DNA of 63,283 nt, filler included. It is 5 parts of 5 records of this genome, joined end to end, with 100 filler letters (N's around TTAATTAATTAA, not from the genome) between each part and the next. Parts side by side here need not be neighbours in the genome. Positions count along the whole stretch, not along the records: positions 52,516 to 63,283 come from SRR20825019_2697; 4 more parts are not named here. One strand, written 5' to 3'. Positions within the stretch are counted from its first letter, which is position 1. Each line of letters begins with the position of its first letter. Shown here in pieces: positions 45,486 to 63,283 of the stretch. A program made the position numbers and the translations under genes. The notes under the pieces are model-generated. The model made no database searches and was not told the DNA's origin. It was given only the letters and a program-made list of their open reading frames with translations.

Positions 45486-47045
45486 TCAGCGGCGTTTGAC
45501 AAGCCGTTTGATCAGCGTCCGGTTGACGCCGCCAGTGACAAGCACGAGGCCGAAATAGACCGCCATGGCAATCGCGAGCAGGATCAGAACGCCGCCGAGC
45601 TGCTGCAGGAAAGGCGCACCCGGCGCAAACCAGGCCGACAGTTTCACCGCCGTGAATTTTACCGCCGCCGCCATCGCCGCCGCACTCATAACGATCAGCG
45701 GCACCCGGCGCACCAGCAGGCTATCGAACTTCAACTGGCCGGATATCAGCAGCGTGGTCGCCAGCAGCACCACATTGGTCCAGCCCGACACGACTTCGGC
45801 CAGCGCGATACCGCGTTCGGCGAGGATCGGAAACAGCGAGATCGCCAGAACCGAATTGATCGCCACGGCAATCATCGTGAAACGCATCGGCAGCTTGGTG
45901 TTTTCACGCGCATAAAAGGCCGGTTGCAGCGCCTTGGTGAGCGCGAAGGCCGGCAGCCCGAAGGCGTAGACCGTCATGATCGCGGCCACCAGCGTCGTGG
46001 TCTCGGGGGTAAAGGCGCCGCGCTCATAAAGCACGCGGGTGATCTCGGTCGAGATCATCATCAGCCCGAACGCCGCCGGAACGGTGAGGAAAAGCACAAA
46101 CTCGATGGTGCGGTTCTGAATATGCCCGGCCTCGGAAAAATTGCCGGCCTTCAGCGCGCGCGACAGTTCCGGCAGCAGCACCACGCCACCCGCAACGCCA
46201 ACGACGCCGAGAGGAAGCTGATAGAGCCGATCGGCATATTGCAGCGACGAGATCGCGCCATCCTTGCCGGACGCCACCGCCTGACCGATCAGCTGATTGA
46301 TCTGGATGACGCCGCCTGTGATCGCCGCCGGCACGGCCAGCGCCACCAGCCGCCTGATCTTCGGCGTGATCTTCGGCCACCGGAAGGTGAAGCGGATTCC
46401 GGCGCGCCGCACATCGAACCAGACGACGGCGAGTTGGATGATACCTGCGCCAAGCACCCCCCAGGACAGATATTCCGCCATCATCACGGGATCCGCGCTG
46501 ACCCAGACGCCGTAGCCAAGAACGGCGATCAGCACCACATTGAGAAACACCGGCGCGATCGCCGCGGCGAAATAGCGGTGCAGCGAGTTCAGCATCCCGC
46601 TCATCATCGCCATCAGCGACATGCAGATCAGATAGGGAAACATCACCGATGACAGCCGCACCGTCATCTCGAATTTCTCGGCGTCGTCGGCAAAGCCCGG
46701 CGCGATGACGAAGCGCACGATCAGCGGCATCGCCAGTTCCATCGCCACGGTGATGAGAAACAGCGCCGTGAACAACACGCCGAAAACCTGCTCGGAAAAG
46801 CGCTTGGCGCCGTCGATCCCGCTTTCCTCGATCTCTTTCGAGAACAGCGGCACGAAGGCGGCGTTGAACGCGCCTTCGGCAAACAGCCGCCGGAACAGGT
46901 TGGGAAAGCGGAAGGCGGCGTAGAACACGTCGGCCATCGGGCCGTTGCCGAGCGCCGCCGCCATCATGGTTTCGCGCGCAAAGCCGAACAGCCGGCTTGC
47001 AAACGTCGCGCCGCCAACGGTGGCGAACTTGCCGACGAGGCTCAT
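45486..47045 (-). CDS. murJ: Lipid II flippase
   Basis: [34 protein letters not shown]. Confidence 0.95.
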
Positions 47046-49966
47046 TTGTCGCGCCCGTCCTTTGCATCGACGCGCCGGGCCCGCGTACCGTTTTCGGCCG
47101 GCAGCAGCATGCCCGGCGGCATGCCCTTGCGGTAGTCGTCGCCCTTGTCCTCGAGCACGGCCTTCATCCTTTCGACGATCGCAGCCTGCCGGCTTTCACT
47201 GGTGATCTTCGCGCCGATCAGATCGGTCACGTAGAAACTGTCGATCACCTTCTCGCCGAATGTTGTGATCCGCGCGGTCTGGATATCGAGCGAAAGCTCC
47301 GACAGCGTCTGGGTCACATCGGCCAGCAGGCCGGTGCGGTCGAGGCACTCGATCTCGATGACGGTGAAGATGTTGGAGAGCTTGTTGGAAACGGAGACAT
47401 GGGTCGGCACCGAAAATGGCCGCACCGAACGGCGCTCGCGCTTGCGCGCCGCGATCAGCTCGTTGAGGTGCTTGCGGCCGGCAAGCAGGTCCTCGATCAG
47501 CTTGCCGATGGTGTTTGCGCGCCGCAATTCATCGGCGTCATCGTCAAACGCCCGGTTCAGGAGGATGGTGTCGAGCGCGCGGCCGTCGGTGGTCGTGAAT
47601 ATCTGGGCATCGGCAATGTTCGCGCCGGTCGCAGCGCAGGCGCCGGCGATGATCGACAGCAAACGCGGATGATCGGGCGCCAGCAGCGTGATTTCGGTAA
47701 TATCGTGAAACGCATTGGTGCGCACCATTGTCGAGAACAAGTGCCGCGCCTTGTCGGCCTCGCGGATGAAACGGGCATGGCGGACCTGATCTTCCAGCGG
47801 CACCGAGAGAAGATAGTTCTGGTAATGCAGATTGGCATATTTGTGCCGTGCGGCATCTTCCCAGCCGGTAAGTGAATCCTCCAGCACCTCGATCGCGCGC
47901 TCGGTTCGCGCCTTGCGGGAAACCGCCGAGAAACCGCCGGACAGCAGGATCTCGGTTTCGTAATAGAGCGTGCGCAGCAACTGCCCCTTCCAGCCGTTCC
48001 AAACATCGGGCCCGACGGCGCGGATATCGCAGACGGTGAGGATCAGCAGGAGGTTGAGCTGGTCGAGCGACTGGACCTTGTCGACGAAATCGACCACGGT
48101 CTTGCGGTCGTTGAGGTCGCGCGTCTGTGAGGTCATCGACATCAGCAGGTGATATTCGATCAGCCAGGCGACGAGTTCGGTCTGCTTTGCCGTCATTCCG
48201 AAGCGCGGGCACAGCTTGCGCGCAACCCGGGCGCCGGCGATCGAATGGTCTTCCTTGCGGCCCTTGGCGATATCGTGCAGCAGCACCGCGACGTAAAGCA
48301 CGGTCCGGTCCTCGACCGACTGGATCAGCCTTGCGGCAAGCGGATGAAGCTCCGACTGCCCGCCGGCATTGTCGATCTCCGACAGCACGGCGACCGAGCG
48401 GATCAGATGCTCGTCGACCGTGAAATGATGATACATGTTGAACTGCATCATCGACACGATACGCCCGAATTCCGGGATGAACCGGCCAAGCACGCCGGCC
48501 TCGTTCATGCGCCTCAGATAAAGCGCCGGATCGTTGCGCGAGGTCAGGATCGACAGGAACAGCCGGTTGGCCTCCTCGTTTTCCCTCAGTTCGGCATTGA
48601 TCAGCGACAGCGAACGCGTCACCACCTTCAACGCGTCGGGATGGAATTCGAGGTCGTTGATCACCGCGACGTAGAAGAAGCGGATGAGGGCGACCGGGTC
48701 CTTCTTGAACACGTCCGGTTCAGCCAGCGCAATCCGGCCGCTGTCGGAGACGAATTCGAGCGAGCCCGGTATCTTGCGCTGGCGCTTGTAGAGCTTCGAC
48801 CAGACCACCTGCCCGATCGACGGCGAGGCCTTGGCCTGCTGCTCCTCAAGGTCGGAACAGAAGATGCGGGTCAGGTCGCCGACATCCTTGGCGACCAGAA
48901 AATAATGCTTCATGAACCTTTCGACCGCCGAAAGGCCGGGCCGGTCCTGATAGTCGAGGGCGGCGGCGATTTCGGCCTGGACGTCGAAGGACAGCCGTTC
49001 CTCGGCCTTGCCGGTCAGGAAATGCAGATGGCAGCGCACCGTCCACAGGAAATCCTCGGCCCGCAGGAACAGCTTCAGTTCCTGGCGCGACAGCACGCCC
49101 AGTTCCACAAGCTGGGAAGTGTCGCGCACCCGGTAGTAATATTTGGCGATCCAGAACAGCGTGTTGAGATCGCGCAAGCCGCCCTTGCCCTCCTTGACAT
49201 TGGGAACCACGAGATAGCGGGTATCGAAGGATTTCTGGTGACGCTGGTCGCGTTCGGCGAGCTTGGCGGCGATGAAATCCGGACCGGTATCGGCCACCAC
49301 CTCCTTGTCGAAACGCCGCTCCAGCGCATTGGCAAGCGCCTTGCGCCCGATGATGTAGCGCATTTCCAGGATCGAGGTGCGGATGGTCATGTCCGCCTTG
49401 GAAAGCTTGATGCACTCCGTCACGCTGCGGGTCGCATGGCCGACCTTCTGGCCCATATCCCAGAGCATGTAGAGAATATATTCGATCGCCTTCAGGGTGT
49501 CTTCCCGGTCGGAATCATCGATCAGGAACAGGAGGTCGATATCGGAGCCCGGCGCCAGCGTGTCACGTCCGTAGCCGCCGACGGCGGTGATCGCGAATTC
49601 CTTGCGGGTATCGGGGAAAATCGAGCGGGTGACGAGGTCATGCAGCGCGATCAGCATCTGGTCTTCGAGCCAAGAGATCCGCCGGGCGCATTCCAGCCCG
49701 CCGCCATCGGCCTTCAGCAGTTCGTAGGCACGATTGCGGCCTGCGGTATTGACTTCCTTCAAGCGCGCAAGGATCGCCTGGCGCACCGTATCCGCACTGC
49801 CGGCATGCCTGCGCGCGATCGCGCGCAGTTCGCTGCGCAGCGCCGAGGGCTCGAACACCTCCGTCATGGCATAGAGATCGGCCGGCGGCGCAGCACCCTT
49901 GACTGTCTGCTGCGCGGTACGCTCGCGCTGCTCTGGCCCGCGCTGTTCTGGCCTTCGTGTCTGCAT
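47042..49966 (-). CDS. glnD: [Protein-PII] uridylyltransferase
   Basis: [32 protein letters not shown], two ACT domains. Confidence 0.96.
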
Positions 49967-50020
49967 AGACCTGCCTTTTCATCCGCGGTTCTCGCGCCGC
50001 CGGAGGTTTCTTAAAGCAAA

Positions 50021-52414
50021 TCACTCGCCAATGGAAACGGCATCATGCATTTTCCGCTTCAGGGCGTAGAGCGTTTCCAGCGCTTCGCGCGGCGTCATGT
50101 CGTCGGGCCGGATGTCGGCAAGCATGGCTTCGACCCCGGAGGTTCTGGGCGAGGGCTCGGGCGCGCGCATGGCGGACTGGAACAGCGGCAGGTCGTCGAT
50201 CAGGCTCGCCGCCGGGTTCTTGCGGTCGGCATCCTCCAGCCGCGTGAGAACGTTCTTCGCCCGCTTGACCACGGCCGCGGGCAGACCCGCGAGGCGAGCG
50301 ACCTGGATACCGTATGAGCGATCCGCCGCCCCCGGCCCGACCTCGTGCAGAAACACCACGTCGCCCTTCCATTCCTTGACCCGCATGGTCGCGTTCACCA
50401 GCCGCGAAAGCTTTTCGGAAAGCACGGTCAGCTCATGAAAATGGGTCGCGAACAGGCCCCGGCAGCAATTGACGTCGTGCAGATGCTCGACCGCCGCCCA
50501 GGCGATCGACAGCCCGTCGAAGGTCGCCGTGCCCCGGCCGATCTCATCGAGAATCACCAGCGAGCGAGGCCCGGCCTGATTGAGGATCGCCGCCGTCTCG
50601 ACCATCTCGACCATGAAGGTCGAACGCCCGCGCGCCAGATCGTCGGAGGCGCCGACCCGCGAAAACAGCCGGTCGACAATGCCGATATGCGCCTTGGCCG
50701 CAGGGACATAGGCCCCGATCTGGGCGAGGATCGCAATCAGCGCATTCTGGCGCAGGAAGGTCGATTTACCGCCCATATTGGGGCCGGTCAGAAGCCAGAG
50801 GCAGCCGCTTTCGCCGGTGACCGGTGACAGCGTGCAGTCATTGGCGACGAACGGGCCCGACGATTGCCGGCGCAGCGCCTGCTCGACCACGGGGTGACGT
50901 CCGCCCTCGATTTCGAACGCCGTCGTTTCGTCAACCAGCGGCCGGCAATAGGCCTCCGCCTCTGCCAGCACGGCAAAACCGGCCGAGACATCGAGGACGG
51001 CAAGCGCGAGCGCGCCCTTCTTCAGGCTCTCGGCAGCCGCCACGACATTGCGGCGCAGGGTTTCGAAGGTCTGGAGTTCGATCACCAGCGCCTCGCCGGC
51101 GGCATTGGCGATCCGGCTTTCGAGATCGGCAAGCTCGGCGGTGGTGAACCGCATCGCATTGGCCATGGTCTGGCGGTGGATGTACTTGGCCTTCGCCGCA
51201 TCGCCTTCGGTCAGCGCGCGGGCATTGCCGGCGGTGACCTCGATGAAATAGCCGAGCACGTTGTTGTGCTTGATCTTCAGCGCCTTGACGCCGGTCTCCT
51301 CGGCATATTGCGCCTGAAGCCCGGCAATCACGCGCCGCGACTTGTCGCGAAGCCCCCTTGCCTCATCAAGCGCATTATCAGCGCCTTCGCGCACGAAGCC
51401 GCCATCGCGCTTCAGCAGCGGCAACTCATCGGCAAGAGTGGCAGCGAGTTGCTGCTCGAGCTCGCGCGGCAGCGCCTGGAGCGATGCCAGTGCCGCTGCC
51501 AGTTCCGCCGGCAGTTCGGCGCCCGAAAGCACATCGGCAATCGAGCGGGCAACGGCAAGGCCGTTCTGGATCGCGCCGAGATCGCGCGGGCCACCGCGAT
51601 CGAGCGCCAGACGCGACAGCGCGCGCGGCATATCGGGAAGCTGCTTCAGGTGGTCGCGAACGGCATCCGAACGCGCCACATCGGCCAGAAAAAAACCCAC
51701 GGAATCCAGACGGGCGAGGATGATTTCAGGGTCAGTCAGCGGCGACATCAACCGTTCGCCGAGAAGGCGCGCGCCGCTGCCGGTGACCGTCCGGTCGACC
51801 GCCTTTAAGAGCGACCCGTCGCGTCCGCCCGCCATGGTGCGCACCAGTTCGAGATTGGCGCGGGTGGCGGGATCGATGAACATCGCGCTCGAAGCGCCGT
51901 CCTGCTCGGGAATGCCGAGCGGCGGACGCTCGTTGATCTGGGTCTTTTCGACATAGGCGACGGCGGCGGCGGCGGCGGAAAGCTCCGGCCGCGAAAACCG
52001 CCCGAAGCCATCGAGCGTGGCAACGCCGAAGAAGCGGCCGAGACGGTCCTGGGCGGTGGCGCCATCGAACAGCACGGCCGGCTGCGGAGAGACCGCGCGG
52101 CCTAGAAGATCGAAGACCGGGCGCAGTTTCTCATCGGAAAACACGGTGTCGGCAACGAGCAATTCGCGCGGCTCGACGCGCATGATATCGGCGGCGAGCC
52201 TGCCTTCGGAGGAAGCGCACACCCGAAAGACGCCGGTGGAGATATCGATCCAGGCCAGACCGTAATTGTTCTCCCCCTCGCCCTTCACCCGCGACATCGC
52301 CATCAGATAATTGCTTTCGCCGGGCGCAAGCAGCTTGTCCTCGGTGATCGTTCCTGCCGTCACCAGCCGGGTGACATCGCGCCGGACCACGGATTTCGAG
52401 CCGCGCTTCTTGGC
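50021..52414 (-). CDS. mutS: DNA mismatch repair protein MutS, 5' truncated
   Basis: [38 protein letters not shown]. Confidence 0.97.
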
Positions 52415-52415
52415 C

Positions 52416-52515
52416 NNNNNNNNNNNNNNNNNNNNNNNNNNNNNNNNNNNNNNNNNNNNTTAATTAATTAANNNNNNNNNNNNNNNNNNNNNNNNNNNNN
52501 NNNNNNNNNNNNNNN
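52416..52515. other. Artificial contig linker
   Basis: 44 N + TTAATTAATTAA + 44 N. Confidence 0.98.
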
Positions 52516-52771
52516 TGCTGATGAGATCTCCGACCCTGAGGCCCGCGGAGGTTGCCGAGCGCGTCCTGAGGCCCAGCTTCAGGGCAGCGGGGCGGCTCAG
52601 GTCACGGCAAGGGATTGTCCTTGGGTTCCACCTTTGAGTTCGGTGCCTGGCCCGTGAAACGGTTGCAAAAAATTCAAAGATTGTACTGAGGTTACAATAA
52701 TCAATTAATGTAGCAAACTTTAATAATAAATTGCCACTGGAGTGTACACATTCGCGCTGCTCGCCGCGAAC

Positions 52772-55723
52772 TCACTGATCCATTCTTGATGACTGCGTAG
52801 GGGCCTGCGCGCCGGTCGGAGGAACGGTCTCCTCTTCCTCAGGTTTCACACCGACCACGCCAGAACCCACAACCGGAACAGCGTCCTGAGCGGCCATCGC
52901 TGTGGCTGCAGCAGGGACCGCTTGGGCCGCCGCGGGGGCTGGCGCTGGCGCTGGGGTTGGTGCGTAAGAGACTGCACCTGGTGGCGGTGCCATGGATGCC
53001 GCAGGGGCGACAGCGGGAGAAGGCGCTGGCGACGGGACCTTAGAACCAGACCGGGCGGTCGGTGGTCGAGCGGCCGGTGATCGGGCGGCCGGTGGCGAGG
53101 CGGCCGGTGGCGAGGCGGCGGGGGCGGGTGACGGCTGCCTCACCTTCGGCACTGGACGAGAATGTCAGCATGTCAGCACTGCCTACAGCCTGGCCAGATC
53201 ATCCCACTCACCAGCACGAGTCGAAAGGTTCCACGTCAGCACGTTGTAGTTGTAACGGGACATGAACGCCATTTCTTGAGCGGCGGCGACGGAATCGCTG
53301 CCGTATCGGCTTAGGAAGGCGTCCTCGAAATAGACATTGACCTTCCTCACAACGTTCTTGAGCTGAATCGCATCCACACTGTCGATGCCATCACAGTCAG
53401 CGGGCCCACCGACCTCCAATGCATCCACAAGACACCTCACCTATTGGTCTCGAGCAGCTCGCGGTCAACGAACCTCTCTAAGGACTTCAGCCCATTAGCC
53501 TCCTTAGGAGCGATGAACCAGCGCACAATGATCCAGCGGGCGTTGTCTACACGCAGCATGCTTTCAATGCGGCCAATCCACGAGCCCTGGTCGACTGTCA
53601 CATAGTCGAAGAGCTCAAACTGGGTGCCCCGAACTGAGGCGGCGCGATGCTGGCAGGCACGAACAATGTTGGACTCGATCCATGCCCCTGTATCAACAAA
53701 GCGGTCCCCATCGCCCGAATCGTTCAGGGTAACGGCGGCGCCCGACACCGCCCACTGAAGCAGGGTAAGCAACTATTGTGCGAACAGATTGCGGTTCCAG
53801 CACACACACCCCAACCAGCCCGACCACAGATACAGCACGGCAGAGTACCACCGCCCTCCGTCAGACCCGCGCTTCCTCAAACCACGCTACTTACTGTGCG
53901 CTCCGCCATCTTCTTAGCATCCTCATGCGGGATGCTAGGGTACTGATCCCGGGCGGCCTTGATCGCCCTGGCCGCGGAGAGGGCAAACTCCTTGTCGGAT
54001 GCCACCAGTTTGTTGTACACCCGCTTCATCATCGACGGTGTGTCACGCACCGGGGCCGGAGGAGCGGTAGGCTTGGTCGTTGGCTTGTGAATACTGCCCG
54101 TGCCTGGGGACTTCTTTGCGGGAGGGGGCGATGAGACCGCAGTCCGGGGGGCCATGCTCATGCTCGACGGTGTATTTGACTTCCGTGCGGCCTTGCGCTG
54201 CTCAATCAGCATCTTCTGCTGCCGGTACTCCTCCTGGGCCTTCCGAAGGCGGGCCTGCTCCGCCGCCTTCTCCTTCATTTCTTCCTGGGTCAGCTGGCGC
54301 AGCTGGGGGCTCCACTTCGAGGCCTCGTGAGAATACCTGAACGCCGACTCGCTCCCGGCATATACGTCGTCCTGTGCGAGGTTCCCACCGACCGCTTCCT
54401 TTGTCAACACCTGGAGCTGGTTGTAGATGGATTGAGATATCAAACTCACCATCGCTGCGGAATATACCACAAGGTCAGAGGGTGAGAGCATCCCGGTTAA
54501 GTTGGTTGGTGCGTACCCCTGTCCAGCCCCAGATCGGCGCAGATCACCTCCGCAAACTCATCCGGGTTATTCCGTTTGTCACTAATATCCCACCAGAACT
54601 GGTCTTTTAGCGCCATACTGCCATGGCTAATGTCAATCTTGATCCGCACTAGCCGCTCCTGGCCGGCCACGGTTAGGTAGCTACGGTAGGCGCTGACCTG
54701 CCCCCGGATTTGCTGTGCGACCTTGGCGGCAAAATGGCCCGGAACCTTGAAGTCCTCGCACACCACCGCAGCGAAGTCCTCTGGTGTAGTTTGCGTTTCT
54801 GTTTGAAGAACCGAAACTGGTCAGTTCCTCCCAAAAAAGAGGAGAGGTCAACAAGAAGAACCACAGCCACGCTACCATTGAGGTTCCAGCTGAACGTGTC
54901 CTTGAGCATGTATTTTCCTTCAGATATATTGAGGGTGATGGGCACCAGGCAGTCGTTCACCGAGCGGCCTGGTCTTTAGTCAGAGCGGACACGCCATAGC
55001 AAGAGCTCCCTGTACTCACAGTATCCCCGCTCGAGGTGCTCCGCCACATGAGGCGGCACGCAGTCATCCCCTTTCTTCGACTGTGAACCGTGGGGGGCGA
55101 ACTTTGCTGCCTGCAGTTCCTTGACTTGCCGGGAACCGCGCGGCCGCCCAGGGCCCCTCCTCTCGCCTTCAGGCCGCGGCTTGCGCTCTGGCTTTGGTGC
55201 ACGCGGCCGCGGCCCCGTCTGCATAGAGCGGGAGAGCACCTGGTTGATGTCGATCGAGCCCTCCCTGCCACTAATGTCAGCGCGCATTACAATCTCGAGT
55301 ATGTCCTGGGAACGTACTTCATTCGCGAGATGAAGTCCCGCACAACTTCAACCATTCGATCGGTGGTGTACTTGTTGTTAAGGAACATGGACATCATCGA
55401 CTGCGGGCATCCCAGATACTTTGCAAGCTACGCAGGCGCAAGTCAGCGCACCAACGAGCCAACAAACCAGAACCACCACGGGCACTCACCGATGTTTGGT
55501 TAATGTGGCGGTCCAAAATGAGCTTCCAGCCCCACTTGCGAAGGTCATCGACTTTGAGTTTATCAGGATCCACATCTACAAGCATGGGGTCCGGCCCTCC
55601 AGTGTATGGCTTGTCCTCTGGAATCATACCAGGCTTCCGAGGCTCTTCTTCGAGCTCCTCCTTGTGCTTCTTAGAGGCAGGTGCGGCGTCGCTACCGTCT
55701 TCTTCCCTCTCCCTCTTCGTCAT
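52772..55723 (-). CDS. Eukaryotic SNF5/SMARCB1-like chromatin remodeller subunit with HTH, AT-hook and BAH domains (9 exons, 800 aa)
   Basis: Exons 55723-55490, 55427-55318, 55264-55020, 54968-54876, 54798-54517, 54454-53895, 53772-53441, 53378-53212, 53151-52772 splice in frame via GT-AG introns; SNF5 repeats LVPITL..KDTFSWNLNE..TPEDFA and KDQFWWDI...PDEFAEVICADLGL; WSPQLRQLTQEEM tail. Confidence 0.8.
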
Positions 55724-55915
55724 GGCTGCACGAAATGCTACGCCTTCCTAGACCACTATACTTATGAGTCTCGCTCCATGAGAGTTGTGTCGTGGGTGCC
55801 GGGAACAACAAAGGGGCATACCGGCCAGTGGATAGTAGGCCCATTATCGCGCGGCCAGCCGCCGACGCGAACCTCGGAGACACGACATTGGGGCGGTGCT
55901 CGGACGGGCGTGGCG

Positions 55916-56082
55916 GCCCGACCTGGCGACCGCAGTGGCGGGCCGGGCGGGCCAGCGGCGGGCGGCCCGTGCCGCGGCCAGGGCGGCGGCGGCCCGCCCA
56001 GCCAGTGCGCCCCGGCGGGCCAGCCCGGCCGGGGGAGGCCACCGGGCGGCCCCGCTGGGCTGAGTTACGTGCCAGGTCGGGC
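55916..56082. repeat. Very GC-rich tract bounded by a 12-bp perfect inverted repeat
   Basis: GCCCGACCTGGC (55916-55927) / GCCAGGTCGGGC (56071-56082). Confidence 0.55.
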
Positions 56083-56637
56083 GGCCGCCGGGCGCCTGAC
56101 TGGGAGCCGGGTTTCCCGCGTTTTCATTCACTCAATCAGCCGGTCCGGGGTGTGGCTCGCTCGCAGTCGGACCAGTCCAGTCGGCGGGCCGGCCCCCGCC
56201 AATTGGTGGCGTGGGCAGACGGCCCAGCGGGGGCATGTTGTCGACGCTGCACAAGCGTCAAGTTTGATTTGTGAGAAATCTCAATTGAATATCCGATATG
56301 CTTCTATAAATATCTGAAAATAGAGATGTATGGTGTTTCTCTTAACCAACTTGTGAGTAGTGCCAGACAAGCACTGCGGAGACACTATGTGTAGTTAGTT
56401 CGTTTCATCGTATAACACTGATGAAGTTACATCCTGTAGAAGAAGCAACATCGCATATGGAAGCATAGAGCATTTTCGATAGGGACACAATAAACTGTAC
56501 ACCATACATGAAACCAAAATGAGCCCCTTTCCATCAACAATGCACAACATACTCTCTTCTTCTTTTTTTTTTTTTTTGTATTTACTATTCCCCCTAAACG
56601 CACACCAAGGAGAAGATGTGGGCACAGAGAACTATGC

Positions 56638-57628
56638 TTATTCCTTCTTGCCACCCTTCTTGGACATCTTCTTAACGTAGAACTCGAGCTCCTTACCCTC
56701 AAGAACGTATCCGTCGCAGCGGCCGGACTGACCGGGGCGGGAAGAGATACGGGCGTAGAGACGGCCAGTCTGGAACTGGTGAGCGATCTCCTGGTCGATG
56801 ACACGGGTGGTCTGGCGCTCCTTCAACTTGCGCTCGACGTGGTTGGACTTCTTGACCTCAGCAGTCTCCTCCTTCTTGGCGCCCTTCTTCTTACCGAGGG
56901 CAACACCGTAGTGCTGGTTGTACCACTGCCTGAAAGGAGCAGCATCGATCTGCACAATAGCACCCTTCACGAGGGTCTTGGTACGGACCAACTCGTTGTT
57001 GGAGGCGTTGTACACGACATCCAACACACGGGTCTTGCGGGTGGTGGCTGGAATACTTATGTCAGACCAAAATCACCACGCCTGCGACCACTTTCCCAAA
57101 CTTACTCTCAGAGCCCCAGCTGAAGTTACCAGTGTCCAAACGGAGGGCACGGAACTTCTCGTTACCACCACGAGTGCGGACAGTCCTGATACGCTTGGTG
57201 CCGAGCTTGGTCATGGCAGCAGGGCGGCCGAGCTCGAATTTCCTCTTCTTGCGGTAGTGGGGGCGCTTACCACCAGTAGCGCGGCGCTTGTGCCGGGAGT
57301 CCCGAGAAATACCTATTACCCTTGTTAGCATAAATGCCCTTTACACTCCACGTCCTTAGCCATGCCCCAAACAAACACTAAACATAAATCATTGAAAAGT
57401 GTGGGTCATATCCAACATTTACCACCAACACAGTGGTGCAGGCCGGAAGAAGCACGCACAATATGTAGGCGAGTCCTGTGATAACCTCTCGACATTTTCC
57501 TATCACGTAGCGCTTCTCGCACGTGATACCCCACTCAAGCCCGCACCGCCCGACTTAATCATTCCCAACCCAGCCCACACAAATCCGGCACCAACAACAC
57601 AAAGCTGCATATTATAATACTCACCCAT
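56638..57628 (-). CDS. RPS8: 40S ribosomal protein S8 (eS8), 3 exons, 206 aa
   Basis: Exons 57628-57625 (ATGG), 57312-57106, 57047-56638 give [16 protein letters not shown]...[13 protein letters not shown]...[19 protein letters not shown]. Confidence 0.95.
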
Positions 57629-58820
57629 GGTGTGTGTGCGAGGGGTCTAGGGTATCTTTGTGGATAATGTGCGACAACCATATATACAGAGGAGGCGATA
57701 GGTTGGGCGCAGGGGAAGGCGGGTCTTGGGGCCGGGACTGATTGGACGTGGACGCGTGATGAGCGGTGGCGGCGAGCCCGGCCGGCTACGACAGGATGCT
57801 AGGACCCTCGGTGCTCAACGCAGAGCCCAGAGGAGGCAGGCAATAGGGCATGGCTGACCCGGGTGACCGAAAAAACCGATCGGACAGAGAAAGCACCCCA
57901 GGTCACGAACACGAGAGTCAAGGAATGTCAATAGGCAGTCACATGATTCCCCATGCGAGGTGTGTTCAGGGAACCACATCAAAATGTGCGCCATGTGAGC
58001 GCACATGCCGAGGGGCCATGCTTTCGGACGGGGGGCGTCCGATCTTACCAACCACTAGATATACCGCATTATTTGACCATTACGAACGAGGCTGTTAAAA
58101 GATTAACCGCACACTTTGTCATATTTATTTGTGACCTTTAAATTGTGATGACTAAATGCGACCGATTGTTGGGGCCATGCTCTGGCCCCCAATCAGCCTG
58201 TTCGGGACGTCGGATTGATGAGTGGCCCGATCCGAACCCGGCAGCCGGGCGACAAGCCTGACGGATGACCGCCGCCGAGGCGGCCACGGTCCGGTGAGAT
58301 GGCCGCGGAATTGGCCAATCACTGAAGTACACCACCCGGAACGTTTGTGGGCGGAACTTCCGGCTGAACAGCCGGAGTGACATCCGAGTGGAGGGGCGCA
58401 CTGGTCATGCATGATGATTCATGACCGCTACGGTGAAGTGGCGCCACAGCCCCCCAAAGAAACTTGGGCGCGGGATCACGGCCGGGGGCACCGCGCCGAG
58501 CCTCCTCCGAACCATCGCGGTTGGGCGTTCTCCCTTCAGTGGTCAAGGGCCGGCCGCAGCGTCCTGCCGCCCGACCTCGAGGGGCTCGGCACATGGAAGA
58601 AAGCGTGAGAGTGTGTCCCTGTGGCCGTGGCGTCACTACCATACCGGCCGTCCAGCGTCTGAGCCGCGCCACGCCCGGCGTGGCGAGGTGAGCGTGCACC
58701 CCAACCACCTAGAACACACCAACATATATATCTGCCATCCAGTTCCATCAGCTATTCCAACTATTCGAACTTGAACGATTGGTTGCCGGTCAGTGGCTGC
58801 CGGGAACCTACCTCCATAAT

Positions 58821-60626
58821 ATGGAAGCAGCAATACGTAAGAAACGCGTAAACGTTACTGTTATTGCATGCTTGAGATGTCGAAGCAAGAAGAGGAAGTG
58901 TGATGGGGGCTCCCCGTGCTCCAGTTGTGTTGCGGCGGGGTTGGGAAAGGAGGACTGCGTAAAAGGCACCCGTGACTTCTCACGAAAGAATAGGCGGCGA
59001 CGGGTGCTCCAGAAGACTTCAGAGACGGACTCTGCTGAGACTTCTGAAGAGTCCGCACAATATTGTAGTATGGTTCAATGGGACGGGGCTAGGATTAGTC
59101 GGGAGCAGATGAGATTCGCATCACAGGCTGCGATGACATGGGAACGGACAGAGCTTCTGAGTTGGTATGCTGAATACCTTCCCACCTGCACTGCTCCGCA
59201 GTGGAAGCGTGCAAGGCGAATGCACACTATTCTCTTCCACAACATCAACGACAGGATTGCAGATGGCTCGCTGCACACGATGGAGGGTATTGGAGTCCGC
59301 TACTGTAATGCCATGTACCTCGGGTGTGCGCTAACATTCTACGGAAGGCACGAGCTAGGCATCATGCAAGTCAAGAATTTATTGAACTCTTCAAACGAGT
59401 TGCGTAAGATTCTGAGCCCGGAGAACTACTTCGATATTGGATTAGCTGGAGTTTCAATGTGCTCCCTCCTTTGGGATGAGCACCCAGTCATTGTACACGA
59501 TGCAATCACAGAGATCAAGGACATCTTGTTTGAGGCCGGCAATGCCTTTGGTCCCAATTTCCTCCATGAGTCATTACACATGACAACTGTCCTCATCTTC
59601 ATGAGCCTCATGACCGACATCAACTCTACCATAGTGGAGCGCACTCAAGCCTTCGCCTTTATGCAGTTTCCTATAATCCCCACTGATCCCGCTGCATTCT
59701 CGGTGGAGATACTTGACCCTGTGTTGCCGGACATGCGTGTGTATATTTGGGTAACGTTATATGAGATACTGGGGCGGCTGGGAGGGCGTCGGGCCGCAGG
59801 ATCAGTGGATCACTTCGTCCGCAATGGGGGTTATGGTTATCCATGTGATATGGTGGGGGTGTTCCGCATGAGCCAGGAAACATTTGCGCGTAGTAACATT
59901 GGGGCTGATAATAAGTTCAGTCTTCCTAAGGAGAAGGTTACAAATCTCTACCGTGCCTGGGAGGTTGTGACTTTTGCGCAGGAGGCTCTGAAGTCATTTC
60001 TGGATCGGAACATGATTTTCCGATATGAGGTCTTTGTTACCACCGTTCTACCATTGATTTTAATGGCGCTATTCATAGCGTACACGTGGTTAGGAGAGCG
60101 GAAGAAGGCAATGACGGTAGGTGAAACCCATATGTTGTTCTTGTATGTGTGTCTTTTGTGCAAGATGGGTGTGCCATGACTTGTGGATAGCTCTTCTTGG
60201 ATATGCGACAACTGGCCAAGTGTCCTCTAATCGCCATTATTGACAAACACTGCGCAGATATTCAATATTTTTAAGATGGAGTGCAAACACATCGCCATGG
60301 TGGGATGGCTTCCCTCACTTTACGATTGGGGATTGGTGGGTATGGTCGAGTGTGTCTACACCCAGTATCAGTCAGAGGAAATGTTGGCTGATGTACGTGA
60401 GGTTGTGGTGAAGGTACGGGATGCTAAGTCCATCAATGTCAATCCGGTGAGAGCAGCCCTAGTGGACGCGATTGACAAGTTCATATCGGACATAGAGAAT
60501 ACTCAGCTGCCAATAATGTTAGTGCAGAAGGAGGAGGCTTCTGGCAACCTGGGCCTCACTATACAAGAGAATCAGTCGTCAGAGCATGACTCGGGGGGTA
60601 GCGATATCATCTTTAAGATCCCGTGA
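58821..60626 (+). CDS. Zn(II)2Cys6 binuclear-cluster transcription factor (2 exons, about 554 aa)
   Basis: ACLRCRSKKRKCDGGSPCSSC-x9-C; phase-0 intron 60117-60257 (GTAGGT...TTGAC...CAG) joins the two ORFs. Confidence 0.78.
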
Positions 60627-61366
60627 GAATATGGGTTGTTTATGTACACTAGAGATGGTAACGCACCAAGACGGACCTCGATCCACGGCCGGTAGCCCTG
60701 CGCGGATGCTTGTTTGCTGGGAAATGCCAAGACTGTTAGCTCGGGCGAAGATTAGGCTGTGAGCCCTGTTGGGCGACGCGGTACCCCCGTAGGCACGGAT
60801 AAGTGTATCGTTCGTAGCAGGATTCAGGCGTCACGCACCACACCTAGGGACCGACCGGCGGTACTCAGACCTTACTCAGACCGCGTCAACAATAAATCCT
60901 GCTCAAGACCAAACTGATCAGTTAGTATGGACAGGTACTGTATGCTACTATTATTAGCACAACAAGTTGCGTCGACTGCCGTGAGTCGGGCTGCGGCGCG
61001 GCGCGCGGGGCCGGTCCGCCCACCCCCGGCTCTGTCACCGGGACCCCCCGTTGCGGCCCCGCGGGCGCACCGGCGCGGCCCCCGCCCCCGCCGGGCGTGA
61101 CCGGACTGCAGGGCGGGTTGCTCATGGTGGTAAGCCCCGGCCGCCGGCCCAGGTTGACTGCGACTGAGGGTTGTCAGCGTGCAATAGATGTCTGCAGCCT
61201 CTTGGTTCACGCCCTGGAGACACGTCGATGAGTGGATGGATCAAGCCAGGCCCTTTCGCAATCAGTCGGCCAGTCAGTCCTGTTGACATTGGTGTCTCGG
61301 AAACGACTCCTTAGGCCTGGTCGACGCCTCGCCTCAACCCGCAATAAATAAACCCTTGCCAGACAC

Positions 61367-61372
61367 TATAAA
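61367..61372 (+). promoter_or_regulatory. TATA box
   Basis: TATAAA 33 nt upstream of the ATG at 61400. Confidence 0.5.
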
Positions 61373-61399
61373 GGGCATCTCCGCCTTGCTAGGAACAAT

Positions 61400-63109
61400 A
61401 TGAAGTCGTCCCTCGCGTTTGTTGCGGTGTGTGTCCTTGCTTGCACGACCACTCTGGCATGGGCTCAAGACTCCGACGCGGTGTCACTCACCGCCGATGG
61501 CTTTGACGGTGACACACAGACTGGCGCGTGGTTCGTGATGTTCAAGGCGTTCTGGTGCGGTCATTGTAAGGTGTGTGGCGGCGGTGCCTTAGTTGTGCTT
61601 GGAGTGCCTTGTGAACTGACCTCCTCCTTGCGCATTTCTTTTTTCGTTACATCATCTTGTGCGTCACTGTGCTTGCTGCTCGCCTCGTTACCAACCTTTC
61701 ATTCCGATTCCCTTCATCTGTAACTCCATGGTGGCCTGCTCCGCATCAACGCCTCTTCTCCTTCGACACCACGTCTGTCTCACCGTCACAGGCCTTGACC
61801 CCTAAATGGGACGTCTTGGCCACTAAGACCAAGGGCCACGTCAACATCGGGGTGGTAGAGTGCACTGAGCAGAGGAGCCTATGTCAAGATATGGGCATCC
61901 GCGGCTTCCCAACACTGAGATTGTTTAAGGATGGCGAGCTCGCCGGTGAGTACCGTGGCCCTCGGACGGTGGAAGCGCTGGAGGAGTTCATTCGGGACAA
62001 CGGGGCGTATGACTACCACCTCCCCGACAACGAGGTGGAGACAGAGGCCGCTAACGCCGCGCCCGCTCCAACCCCGGAGCCGGAGGTCCACGCGGACCAG
62101 CCTCCGGCCCCGCCCAAGCAAGACTCTCCGGCTAGCCCGCCCGCTGACCACAAGAATTCTGACGGTAGGTGACGGTGTTTCTATTTATAGTTCCGTTTGG
62201 TTTGGTTTTGGGCTGTGGCGCGGAGGTTTGTTGGCGCTGAGAAGACCCCGACGCTCACTGTGGTACACGCAGTTGTGCTGCGCTATTTTGGGGCGCAGGG
62301 CCGGGCGGAGGCCGTCCGCCTCGCCCTGGAGGAACGTGGAATCGAGTACCAAGACATCCGCTTCAACCGCGACACGTGGCCGGATGAGAAGCAGAAGGGA
62401 ACCGAAGCGGGCATCTACACCTTCGGGCAGCTCCCTGAGCTCAGCATCGACGGCAAGCATATTGTCCAGAGCGGCGCGATCTTGCGGCACCTTGCCCGTA
62501 GAGAGGGGCTCTATGGGTCTGCCGGAGAGGAGACCATGGTGGACGTGGTGTTTGACGGTGCCGAGGACATGCGCAAGGCGTACGGGAAGCTGGTGTACTC
62601 ATCAGGCTTCGACGCTGATAGGTTGGTGTGCGGAGAGAGGTCGACTGAACGTCATCGATACTAACGCCCGTGGTAACTCAGGCCCGCGTATGTCAACGAG
62701 TATCTTCCCCTGTGGCTAGGCCACATGGAGCGGCTCAAGGCCAAGTCTCCCCATGCGGAGTTCTTCGTTGGAGAGCAGCTGACCATCGCCGATATTTCAA
62801 TGTTTAACATCCTCGACGTCAATACCCGCCTCGAGCCGAGCTGCCTCGACGCATACCCGAACCTCAAGGTAATGTGCGAAACATGGGAAGTTGGCGGCGG
62901 GGAGGCCACTGTGTAGTAGGATAGTGAATGCGGAACTGCTCCGCCAGCCAGGTGCTAATGAATCCCTGCAGGTTTTTAAGGAACGCTTCGCCGCCCGGCC
63001 ACGGATCGCGAGCTACCTCAGCTCACAGAGGCGCCCTGTCCATGCTAATGGGCCAACGTCGTTCTACGACAATGAGAACCGGCCAGCCAAGGGCAACCTC
63101 CGCAAGTAG
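61400..63109 (+). CDS. Signal peptide + PDI-type thioredoxin domain + Pro-rich linker + glutathione S-transferase (5 exons, 405 aa)
   Basis: Exons 61400-61570, 61792-62164, 62273-62621, 62682-62868, 62972-63109 splice in frame; WCGHCK, GIRGFPTL; GST YF..QGRAEAVR, FGQLP, QSGAILRHL, VGEQLTIAD, RPRIASYL. Confidence 0.8.
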
Positions 63110-63283
63110 TCATTTGCAGGGCGCTTCACGGTGCCCTTGCGGGGCATGGATGTGAAGATATCTTCGATAGTGGAGCACAAGCACAAGAGAAAGCATAGAT
63201 TCTGATATATAAATACCTTTGAATTCACTTGGTACCATGTATTATTTGAAGGCGGTTTCATTCTCCAACTCAACCAGATCAAC

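Follow-up and report, generated by a model that had tools for sequence, protein, structure and literature searches.

A candidate exported fusion of a PDI-type thioredoxin domain and a Pi-like glutathione S-transferase encoded by a five-exon eukaryotic gene

Soluble Tyr-type glutathione S-transferases (GSTs) are treated as cytosolic enzymes, and debate continues both on how disulfide reduction and isomerisation in the ER are supplied with glutathione and on the effects of GSTs on protein disulfide isomerase (PDI). Human and mouse GSTP1 and the pi GST of Wuchereria bancrofti (5d73) are the best solved relatives of the GST described here, sharing with it the catalytic Tyr and residues of the glutathione site. 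GSTP1 is a cytosolic, stand-alone protein with no signal peptide, whereas the GST encoded in the window (the whole stretch of DNA that was analysed, 63,283 nucleotides long) is predicted to be exported behind a thioredoxin domain.

Secretory soluble GSTs have been described in Onchocerca. In the excerpt of PMC6939172 available, the sigma-class enzymes OvGST1 and OoGST1 carry a signal peptide that is cleaved off and a 25-residue N-terminal extension and act as prostaglandin D synthases, OoGST1 is N-glycosylated, and the Onchocerca enzyme is counted, as of 2019, as only the second glycosylated GST characterised. They are similar to the window protein as soluble Tyr-type GSTs with an N-terminal extension and a signal peptide, cleaved in the Onchocerca enzymes, but differ from it in their sigma class, N-glycosylation and lack of a thioredoxin domain (PMC6939172, same excerpt), the window protein having no N-X-S/T sequon.

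The thioredoxin part of the window protein resembles the a-type domains of the PDI family (TXNDC5/ERp46, ERdj5, PDIA1/A3/A6) in its predicted signal peptide, the CGHC motif and the cis-Pro loop, and its Cys81/Cys88 pair matches the CX6C pair of the TXNDC5 and ERdj5 domains. In contrast to the PDI family, the protein has a single catalytic domain and lacks both a KDEL/HDEL tail and the substrate-binding b/b' domains; where further thioredoxin-fold domains would stand, it has a GST. A mammalian link between the two enzyme types, mentioned in the original prediction, is in print, as GSTP1 modifies the CXXC motif of PDIA1 by S-glutathionylation, with an inhibitory effect under stress (PMC12172305, in the part available). 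There, too, a Pi GST is functionally paired with a PDI CXXC site (PMC12172305, same part), but the partners are separate proteins and GSTP1 is by its sequence no luminal resident.

Gene structure and spliced transcript

The gene occupies positions 61400–63109 of the plus strand, starting with the ATG at 61400 and ending with the last letter of the stop codon at 63109, and its product is 405 aa long (Table 1). The 405 codons form an open frame only once all four GT..AG introns are removed. Intron 2 was present exactly as originally proposed, with a GTAGGT start, a CAG end and, 18 nt ahead of the acceptor, CTCAC; the intron is of phase 1, since exons 1 and 2 together count 544 nt. The apparent stop noted at 62172 turned out to be an in-frame TGA (62170–62172), which is spliced out with this intron. 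Intron 2 contains no ATG, and the GST part indeed lacks a start of its own because residue 269 is its first in-frame Met. The C-terminus reads NLRK, with neither KDEL nor HDEL, in agreement with the same prediction. Introns 1, 3 and 4 were absent from it.

A 1381-nt contig of sequencing run X1, the one run on record for the stretch, aligned in five pieces with the region 61373–63224, differing from it in one letter and carrying a 21-letter adaptor-like loose end before 61373. Its four joints skip 221, 108, 60 and 103 nt, which are exactly the predicted introns. The junction 62164/62273, for which junction reads had been suggested as a check, is crossed by this assembled contig. Because a single contig skips all four introns, the fused mRNA exists; the kind of run X1 is unrecorded (given as '?'), its RNA nature being inferred from the exact intron skips and the adaptor-like end. 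Contigs of this run cannot give transcript ends or abundance.

It could be argued from the unrecorded kind of the run, from the lack of any RNA run on record for the stretch and from contigs showing neither transcript ends nor abundance that two neighbouring genes were fused only through faulty assembly or read-through, or that X1 contains an intronless DNA copy, the fusion protein not being normally made. Such an artefact is extremely improbable and already close to refuted: besides the adaptor-like end and the precise removal of four introns at their GT..AG borders, the GST part lacks its own start codon and 17 other proteins share the same architecture, 12 of which (those with the size given) come from contigs of about 1.1–2.4 kb, with a further one, P0033, on a contig of 54 kb. 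The locus is almost certainly one five-exon eukaryotic gene with a fused product belonging to a family of thioredoxin-GST proteins. An Rfam scan of the region 52500–63283 returned nothing at gathering scores, and a repeat search of the same region found nothing linking the GC-rich islands.

Table 1. Positions of the features of the thioredoxin-GST gene in the window
Feature	Position	Strand	Content or basis
Spliced transcript contig, minimum mRNA extent	61373..63224	+	1381-nt contig of run X1, five pieces
Exon 1, coding part, residues 1-57	61400..61570	+	Signal peptide, then start of thioredoxin domain through WCGHCK; Pfam Thioredoxin model positions 3-34
Predicted signal peptide, residues 1-22	61400..61465	+	MK, hydrophobic core, AWA before QD
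WCGHC redox motif, Trp52 Cys53 Gly54 His55 Cys56	61553..61567	+	W, C and C invariant in 15/15 aligned fusion relatives
Intron 1, 221 nt, GT..AG	61571..61791	+	Skipped in X1 contig
Exon 2	61792..62164	+	Rest of thioredoxin domain (Cys81/Cys88, cis-Pro Pro97) and linker; Pfam Thioredoxin 3.7e-14
Pro/Ala-rich linker, residues 129-181	62005..62163	+	12 Pro and 10 Ala of 53
Intron 2, 108 nt, phase 1	62165..62272	+	Exactly at linker/GST border; contig joint 62163 to 62272, 108 nt skipped
Exon 3	62273..62621	+	GST N-terminal glutathione-binding domain and start of helical domain; Pfam GST_N 3.5e-11
Catalytic Tyr186 codon, in LRYF	62284..62286	+	Aligns with Tyr7 of mouse GSTP1
Intron 3, 60 nt, GT..AG, contains TACTAAC	62622..62681	+	Gene model and X1 contig
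Exon 4, GST C-terminal helical domain	62682..62868	+	Pfam GST_C_3 5.1e-12, GST_C 1.1e-10
Intron 4, 103 nt, GT..AG	62869..62971	+	Gene model and X1 contig
Exon 5	62972..63109	+	GST end, conserved RRP..ANG...DN tail, NLRK, stop codon

Thioredoxin and GST domains

The N-terminus reaches a hydropathy of 3.2 over residues 3–13 and has small residues at positions -3 and -1. By this heuristic, consisting of hydropathy and the -3/-1 rule only, secretory targeting of the window protein is very probable. The Pfam matches to the domains greatly exceed what chance would give. The thioredoxin domain was recognised by Pfam on exon 2, exon 1 alone scoring 0.0026, under the gathering score. It is of the PDI type in having CGHC, and its Pro97 (cis-Pro) falls on an invariant column of the fusion alignment. 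The closest solved relatives of this part in a PDB sequence search were domains of TXNDC5, ERdj5 and PDI, which are ER oxidoreductases. Pfam found in the window protein nothing beyond one thioredoxin domain and the GST, and no b-type domains.

Three Pfam models (GST_N, GST_C_3 and GST_C; Table 1) place the second part in the GST superfamily. In the PDB sequence search its best match was 5d73_A (8e-19), named in the structure search as the pi-class GST of Wuchereria bancrofti, followed by Pi-class GSTP1. Tyr186 is invariant in 18 of 18 relatives and, in a separate alignment, in all 15 fusions. The alignment to mouse GSTP1 revealed that Tyr186, Arg192, Trp217, Gln234-Leu-Pro236, Gln247-Ser248 and Asp280 are kept, with Lys221 opposite GSTP1 Lys44, a less sure match because of the 4-residue gap adjoining it; the glutathione-site residues of GSTP1 we take to be Arg13, Trp38, Lys44, Gln51-Leu52-Pro53, Gln64-Ser65 and Asp98. 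As judged from these comparisons, the window GST is complete, Tyr-type and Pi-like, with a predicted full glutathione site.

Identity within a GST class is customarily above about 40%. Pi chains are the best solved matches, yet the fusion relative P0170, whose AlphaFold model corresponds by fold to Pi-class structures with a TM-score of 0.90 on the target, is only 34–40% identical to them. In the trees, the window GST groups with a clade of signal-peptide GSTs and not with animal GSTP, and it is set apart from cytosolic Pi-class enzymes by the hydrophobic N-terminal signal, the AWA/QD cleavage pattern and the missing start of its own. The contig, Pfam, the PDB searches and the full-length relatives agree on the arrangement that had been proposed for a single secretory-pathway protein: behind a signal peptide come a PDI-type WCGHC thioredoxin domain and a linker rich in Pro, followed by a Tyr-type Pi-like GST that lacks a start of its own.

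Related thioredoxin-GST fusions

A total of 17 thioredoxin-GST proteins besides the window protein were found (P0170–P0176, P0178, P0012, P0018, P0019, P0036, P0079, P0033 and, from Mataza sp. D1, P0042, P0152 and P0153). For nearly all of them the source is a metatranscriptome or run assembly; Mataza sp. D1, a cercozoan, is the sole named source. The best ten of the 17 align nearly end to end with the window protein, from query residues 1–25 to 395–400, with 37–41% identity and E values of 1e-81 to 5e-96 (blastp, 285 stored proteins). The relatives have the same parts in the same order: a signal peptide, one WCxxC thioredoxin domain, a linker, a Pi-like GST and the RRP..NG..DN tail. They differ from the window protein in linker length (about 10–40 residues by eye counts on the alignment, P0019 being among the members with a short linker, versus the Pro-rich 53) and in the second cysteine pair, missing from the closest group and kept in the window protein as Cys81/Cys88; in addition, the window GST lies near the tree base, outside the main fusion group. 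In P0033, four WCGHC motifs (five Pfam thioredoxin stretches) precede the same GST.

Across 15 fusions, 33 columns are invariant, including WCxxC, cis-Pro and the GST Tyr, Trp, Lys, Gln, Pro and Asp columns (each in 15/15), and the window protein retains 31 of them. Both active sites are conserved in these alignments, which is taken to point to selection on both. A hydrophobic N-terminus was detected in 15 of the 18 fusions; of the three exceptions, two lack an initial Met and are apparently truncated at the 5' end, and in P0036 the N-terminus is aberrant. Most fusions probably leave the ER, since just one of the 18 has a KDEL-like tail.

The strict conservation of WCxxC argues for a catalytic thioredoxin domain, and it bears on another reading, in which the GST is a non-conjugating isomerase (e.g., of the prostaglandin type) or ligandin and the thioredoxin domain serves as a structural or folding aid for it. 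Such a role would be favoured by OvGST1 and OoGST1, which make prostaglandin D and are the only characterised secretory soluble GSTs found, but OoGST1 is N-glycosylated (PMC6939172, excerpt) whereas the window protein has no sequon, and the window GST is nearer to Pi than to Sigma structures. With the conserved redox motif also against it, this reading seems improbable.

The search for the same architecture, suggested with the original prediction, gave a divided answer. The fusion is not unique, as the 17 further proteins demonstrate, and the architecture is already in databases, where the JGI label of the relatives is only 'protein disulfide-isomerase-like protein'; no paper describing such a natural fusion was found. 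In the full-text literature open without subscription, neither a natural thioredoxin-GST fusion nor an ER-luminal Pi-like GST came up. PMC5447177, considered as a precedent, was rejected, covering in the part available cytosolic and microsomal GSTs only. Taken together, the sequences appear to constitute a small, unstudied family of thioredoxin-GST fusions in microbial eukaryotes.

Other searches added no member. A word-indexed search with the exon 3 GST gave no match at E <= 0.001 among 637 candidates, which is weak evidence, and searching with a profile built from 18 secretory GSTs brought 55 matches, few of them named, with no new fusion. In the ESM Atlas, P0178 scored 0.77 at best and none of the clusters combined the two domains, a result uninformative as to the architecture. 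When metagenomes were scanned with the fusion profile, 80 loci came back, almost all of them genes for PDI; tblastn of the window protein on these 80 loci detected a GST in L001 only and both domains in none.

Wider GST clade and proposed function

As the best overall explanation, to which we give an even chance, the window protein is proposed to be an exported fusion acting as a glutathione-coupled thiol-disulfide relay; the coupling between the GST and thioredoxin domains, inferred, is put forward tentatively, at rather below even chances. The protein would enter the ER and, having no KDEL/HDEL tail, would move on, probably to the cell exterior. The GST domain would bind glutathione, with Tyr186 lowering the pKa of its thiol, and the tethered CGHC could exchange with the activated glutathione, becoming reduced or (de)glutathionylated. 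The CGHC site would then hand the redox change to client proteins, at their disulfides or thiols, the net result being a self-recycling, glutathione-driven protein-disulfide reductase/isomerase. Against a relay, Tyr-type GSTs usually direct glutathione at small electrophiles, PDI is reduced by glutathione with no catalyst, and the supply of glutathione beyond the ER is uncertain.

The phylogenetic analysis placed the GST domains of the fusions inside a larger clade of predicted signal-peptide Pi-like GSTs of microbial eukaryotes. In the first tree, all 12 non-redundant fusions fell in one clade with signal-peptide GSTs (48 rows, support 93), and the second tree gave the same grouping, with all 12 fusions among 35 rows (SH-aLRT 85). 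The window GST is located at the base of the 35-row clade in a position that is not fixed, its sister being P0037 (94), which has a signal peptide only. On this tree, the fusion label requires six changes, three of them being forced by the starred branches. Many of the signal-peptide GSTs end in KDEL-like tails, the named ones coming from diplonemids and Palpitomonas; examples are P0015 (KNEL), P0065 of Palpitomonas bilix (SRDEL), P0068 of Rhynchopus euleeides and P0294 of Diplonema japonicum. They share with the window protein the GST clade, the conserved tail motif and the hydrophobic N-terminus, but have no thioredoxin domain, and most of them carry an ER-retrieval-like xxEL tail absent from the window protein.

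After redundancy filtering, 34 signal-peptide rows with no thioredoxin domain (16 SP+xEL and 18 SP) stood against the 12 fusions. Because so many close relatives lack the thioredoxin domain, a secretory GST probably has a job of its own that does not require coupling. The exported GST might accordingly detoxify electrophiles or lipid hydroperoxides while the thioredoxin domain works as a separate PDI-like foldase, the fusion merely securing co-export and equal amounts of two independent activities. The structural predictions are compatible with this: the AlphaFold model of P0170 consists of two confident domains with a disordered linker and shows no confident inter-domain packing (pTM 0.60), and the 53-residue tether of the window protein is long and flexible, so no fixed domain arrangement is predicted. 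A complex prediction of the P0170 thioredoxin and GST parts scored 0.00 but, run with neither alignments nor controls, is uninformative either way. Nevertheless, two independent activities are considered rather unlikely, although by no means negligible. The domain order is kept at 37–41% identity with both active sites invariant, which is easier to explain if the two domains cooperate, and P0033 adds further thioredoxin domains to the same GST. By analogy, the action of mammalian GSTP1 on the PDIA1 CXXC active site suggests a precedent for GST-PDI coupling and also speaks against independence (PMC12172305, in the part available).

A glutathione-coupled relay, if true, would give glutathione a dedicated enzymatic entry to oxidative folding or to the control of extracellular thiols, and the thioredoxin-GST fusions would be the evolutionary counterpart of the mammalian GSTP1-PDIA1 interaction. 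A whole clade of Pi-like GSTs has predicted export signals, with some members fused to a PDI-type active site. The broader view that Pi-like GSTs include an old, widespread and overlooked secretory branch, the thioredoxin-fused members of which are self-contained glutathione-driven disulfide reductases/isomerases, is speculative and at present unlikely to hold in full. As a test system the natural fusion is simple, being a single polypeptide in which Tyr186 and the CGHC cysteines can be mutated.

Adjacent to the gene lies a Zn2Cys6 ORF, the best ESM Atlas score of which was 0.83, a value regarded as a lead only.

Exon structure and transcript of the fusion gene

The gene encoding the thioredoxin–glutathione S-transferase (Trx-GST) fusion is located at 61400–63109 on the + strand and comprises five exons forming a single open frame of 405 codons. 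All four introns (221, 108, 60 and 103 nt) are of the GT..AG type. Intron 2 (62165–62272) starts with GTAGGT, carries CTCAC 18 nt upstream of its CAG end and is in phase 1; the TGA at 62170–62172 is spliced out with it and no ATG occurs within it. These features, as well as the NLRK end of the protein, confirmed the gene structure claimed in the original prediction. The earliest in-frame Met within the GST part is residue 269, therefore the GST cannot be made alone. Minus-strand ORFs across the gene were all short (43–91 aa).

The junctions were checked in X1, a public sequencing run of unrecorded kind containing 65% of the sampled words from 61300–63283. A single 1381-nt X1 contig aligned to 61373–63224 in five pieces, differing by one letter, and its four joints skipped exactly 221, 108, 60 and 103 nt, with GT..AG at each, including the anticipated joint across 62165–62272. 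A 21-letter loose end precedes 61373 and resembles the adaptor of template-switch cDNA kits. Because of this end, and because the size of X1 (137,369 contigs, 47 million letters) fits a transcriptome, the contig was taken as cDNA of the spliced fused mRNA. With the run kind unrecorded, X1 could also be read as a DNA run and the contig as an intronless copy of the gene, which is unlikely, the adaptor-like end speaking against it. Read as cDNA, the contig shows one mRNA encoding one polypeptide from the fusion gene; transcript abundance and intron retention are beyond what contigs can show. Both the fused mRNA and the Trx-GST family are considered solid. Since the contig starts at 61373, the 5' UTR is only about 27 nt long. 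The sequences AATAAATAAA (61343–61352) and TATAAA (61367–61372) are found directly upstream of this first base.

Features of the fusion gene, its protein and its surroundings
Feature	Position	Strand	Remarks
Exon 1	61400–61570	+	
Exon 2	61792–62164	+	
Exon 3	62273–62621	+	
Exon 4	62682–62868	+	
Exon 5	62972–63109	+	
Predicted signal peptide	residues 1–22		MK, hydrophobic core, AWA before QD; hydropathy and -3/-1 rule only
Redox motif	Trp52-Cys53-Gly54-His55-Cys56		thioredoxin domain
Second Cys pair	Cys81/Cys88		thioredoxin domain
cis-Pro candidate	Pro97		thioredoxin domain
Linker/tether	residues 129–181		12 Pro and 10 Ala in 53 residues
ORF-dense stretch	1–28.6 kb		38–40% GC, dense long ORFs
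Bacterial-type GlnD and MutS	47042–52459		62–66% GC
SNF5-like piece	53877–54557	-	weak SNF5/SMARCB1 match, Pfam 3.2e-06
Zn2Cys6 ORF, upstream neighbour of the fusion gene	58713–60179	+	488 aa, Pfam fungal Zn(2)-Cys(6) 2.4e-07
GC-rich islands	52900–53199, 55900–56199, 61000–61299		70–81% GC within the 50–60% GC eukaryote-like stretch

Domains of the fusion protein

Pfam Thioredoxin matched exons 1 and 2 (3.7e-14 on exon 2), GST_N matched exon 3 (3.5e-11), and GST_C_3 (5.1e-12) and GST_C (1.1e-10) matched exon 4. The first residues follow the classical signal-peptide pattern and are predicted to form an export-type N-terminus. In PDB sequence searches, the closest solved relatives of the thioredoxin domain were the ER oxidoreductases TXNDC5, ERdj5 and PDI, and the top match of exon 3 was 5d73_A (8e-19), by title a pi-class GST of Wuchereria bancrofti, followed by mouse and human GSTP1 at ~1e-15. 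Intron 2 sits exactly at the end of the linker and the GST domain begins at Val182. Tyr186, Arg192, Trp217, Gln234-Leu-Pro236, Gln247-Ser248 and Asp280 were kept in the alignment to mouse GSTP1; there Tyr186 falls on the catalytic Tyr7 of GSTP1. The protein has one additional Cys (Cys352) and lacks both an N-X-S/T sequon and a second hydrophobic segment.

The Pfam and PDB matches and the full-length relatives support the predicted structure of a putative signal peptide, WCGHC thioredoxin, Pro-rich linker and Tyr-type GST. The CGHC site of the protein is of the PDI type and its Tyr-type glutathione site is complete; the fusion family conserves the two sites.

The fold was predicted for a relative, P0170, from an alignment with 14 fusions, in place of the window protein. 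In the model (mean pLDDT 83.8, pTM 0.60) both domains were confident, with values below 50 pLDDT at the signal peptide (1–21) and the linker (131–142), and the two domains had no predicted fixed arrangement. In Foldseek, the GST half matched Pi-class structures at a TM-score of 0.90 on the target and 34–40% identity.

The fusion family and the clade of secretory GSTs

An HMMER search of a protein library with GST exon 3 gave 2984 matches at E ≤ 0.001, 314 at ≤ 1e-10 and 3 at ≤ 1e-30, the identity of representatives never exceeding 54%. Among the 150 listed of these 2984, at least seven also matched the window thioredoxin part, N-terminal to the GST (the relatives P0012, P0018, P0019, P0036, P0042, P0079 and the 796-aa P0033). 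P0033 extends the fusion into a PDI-like multi-domain protein, in which four WCGHC motifs and, according to Pfam, five thioredoxin stretches come before the same GST. In a second search, with a profile built from seven fusions, 11 of the 120 matches listed had PF00085 together with GST families, eight of them new, and the remaining 109 were ordinary PDI-family proteins. In all, at least 17 other Trx-GST fusions were found, two further Mataza cluster members included. The spliced window protein aligned with ten fusions along nearly the full length at 37–41% identity (for P0178, 41% over 383 columns, E 5e-96).

In an alignment of 15 fusions, invariant columns comprised the W and both C of WCxxC, the cis-Pro, and Tyr/Trp/Lys/Gln/Pro/Asp of the GST, and the window protein kept 31 of 33 family-invariant columns. 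A hydrophobic N-terminus was detected heuristically in 15 of 18 fusions, the window protein included; two of the other three start without Met and look 5'-truncated, and the remaining one, P0036, combines an unusual N-terminus with the only KDEL-like tail among the 18. In the Mataza sp. D1 cluster (P0042, P0152 and P0153), WCDHC replaces WCGHC and the GST helical domain has a Ser-rich insert. Near their C-termini, P0042 and P0153 additionally carry a hydrophobic segment with a basic tail behind it, and so may be membrane-anchored.

The fusions came from JGI or Logan assemblies, except for the P0042/P0152 cluster of Mataza sp. D1 (MMETSP, EukProt). The twelve with a listed contig size were on contigs of ~1.1–2.4 kb, and P0033 was on a 54-kb contig (JGI). 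Their sole JGI label was 'protein disulfide-isomerase-like protein'. As the fusions are already in databases under a generic label, the gene belongs to an unstudied family rather than being peculiar to this genome. At least 17 other proteins in databases share the architecture, but no paper on a natural thioredoxin-GST fusion or a luminal Pi-like GST was found in the full-text literature searched, subscription journals being outside its scope. Taken singly, the domains come from well-known families; what is unusual is their pairing and the fact that a Pi-like GST is exported. Among soluble GSTs of the secretory pathway, the literature searched yielded characterised examples only from Onchocerca; these are prostaglandin D synthases that are N-glycosylated and of sigma class (PMC6939172).

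Many of the GSTs closest to that of the fusion protein have a hydrophobic N-terminus, no thioredoxin domain and often KNEL, RDEL, KKEL or KSEL-like ends; named sources include Palpitomonas bilix, Rhynchopus euleeides and Diplonema japonicum. A tree was made from all collected proteins with exactly one near-complete GST domain (n = 166); those lacking such a domain or having several, tandem GSTs included, were left out. After P0042 had been added by hand and redundancy above 80% identity to a retained row filtered out, 137 rows remained. FastTree yielded a 48-row clade (support 93) with 12 of 12 fusions, 15 of 16 GSTs with a signal peptide and an ER-retrieval-like xEL tail and 11 of 18 other signal-peptide GSTs, the signal-peptide and tail labels being crude heuristics. 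Animal GSTP and most plain GSTs fell outside. The existence of such a secretory Pi-like clade is to a degree surprising. In a quick IQ-TREE run on the 48 clade rows and 10 outgroup rows, all 12 fusions were in a 35-row clade (SH-aLRT 85), ten of them in a 15-row clade (81), and the window GST was sister to the signal-peptide-only P0037 (94), with the base unresolved. The fusion label needed six changes, three forced by starred branches, and the tree is compatible with a single fusion origin and later losses.

The three best GST-exon matches (P0002, P0003 and P0004) were tandem GST-GST(-GST) proteins of 527–1186 aa, P0002 having a hydrophobic N-terminus and an HSEL end. In P0065 from Palpitomonas bilix, a signal peptide and a ~150-residue N-terminal region precede the same GST, and the protein ends in SRDEL. 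The N-terminal region had no Pfam match and may be another partner of the secretory GST.

Possible function and genomic surroundings

The function of the fusion protein can only be inferred from its sequence. The protein would enter the ER and, as it lacks an HDEL/KDEL tail, would travel onward; its Pro/Ser/Thr-containing tether resembles the linkers of secreted fungal enzymes. The GST domain would bind and activate glutathione, and the CGHC site would exchange first with the GST-bound glutathione and subsequently with disulfides or thiols of client proteins. Such a glutathione-coupled relay is the most economical function for the tethered pair and is put forward tentatively, its direction (reduction, isomerisation or (de)glutathionylation) being beyond what sequence can tell. 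The GSTP–PDI glutathionylation in mammals mentioned in the original prediction is in print: according to PMC12172305, GSTP1 S-glutathionylates PDIA1 at its CXXC motif, which provides a precedent for a GST–CGHC contact. Thioredoxin-free members of the clade, the variable linker length and the uncertain glutathione supply beyond the ER count against a relay. Independent, co-exported activities of the two domains are rated only a little less probable than the relay. The fusion makes the glutathione–PDI link directly testable.

The window is made up of dissimilar pieces, with eukaryote-like ORFs from ~52.5 kb onward. The SNF5-like piece probably represents a single exon of a gene for chromatin remodelling. 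For the Zn2Cys6 ORF, which perhaps continues in 60276–60626, the closest Atlas clusters were Ascomycota Zn_clus proteins (scores 0.81–0.83, a lead only). The short introns of the fusion gene with CTAAC/CTCAC-type branch signals look fungal, and a fungal assignment of the gene is tentatively suggested. Rfam added no further annotation in 52500–63283. The GC-rich islands were not repeats of one another at the repeat-search sensitivity used, and one of them lies ~250–400 bp upstream of the transcript start of the fusion gene.
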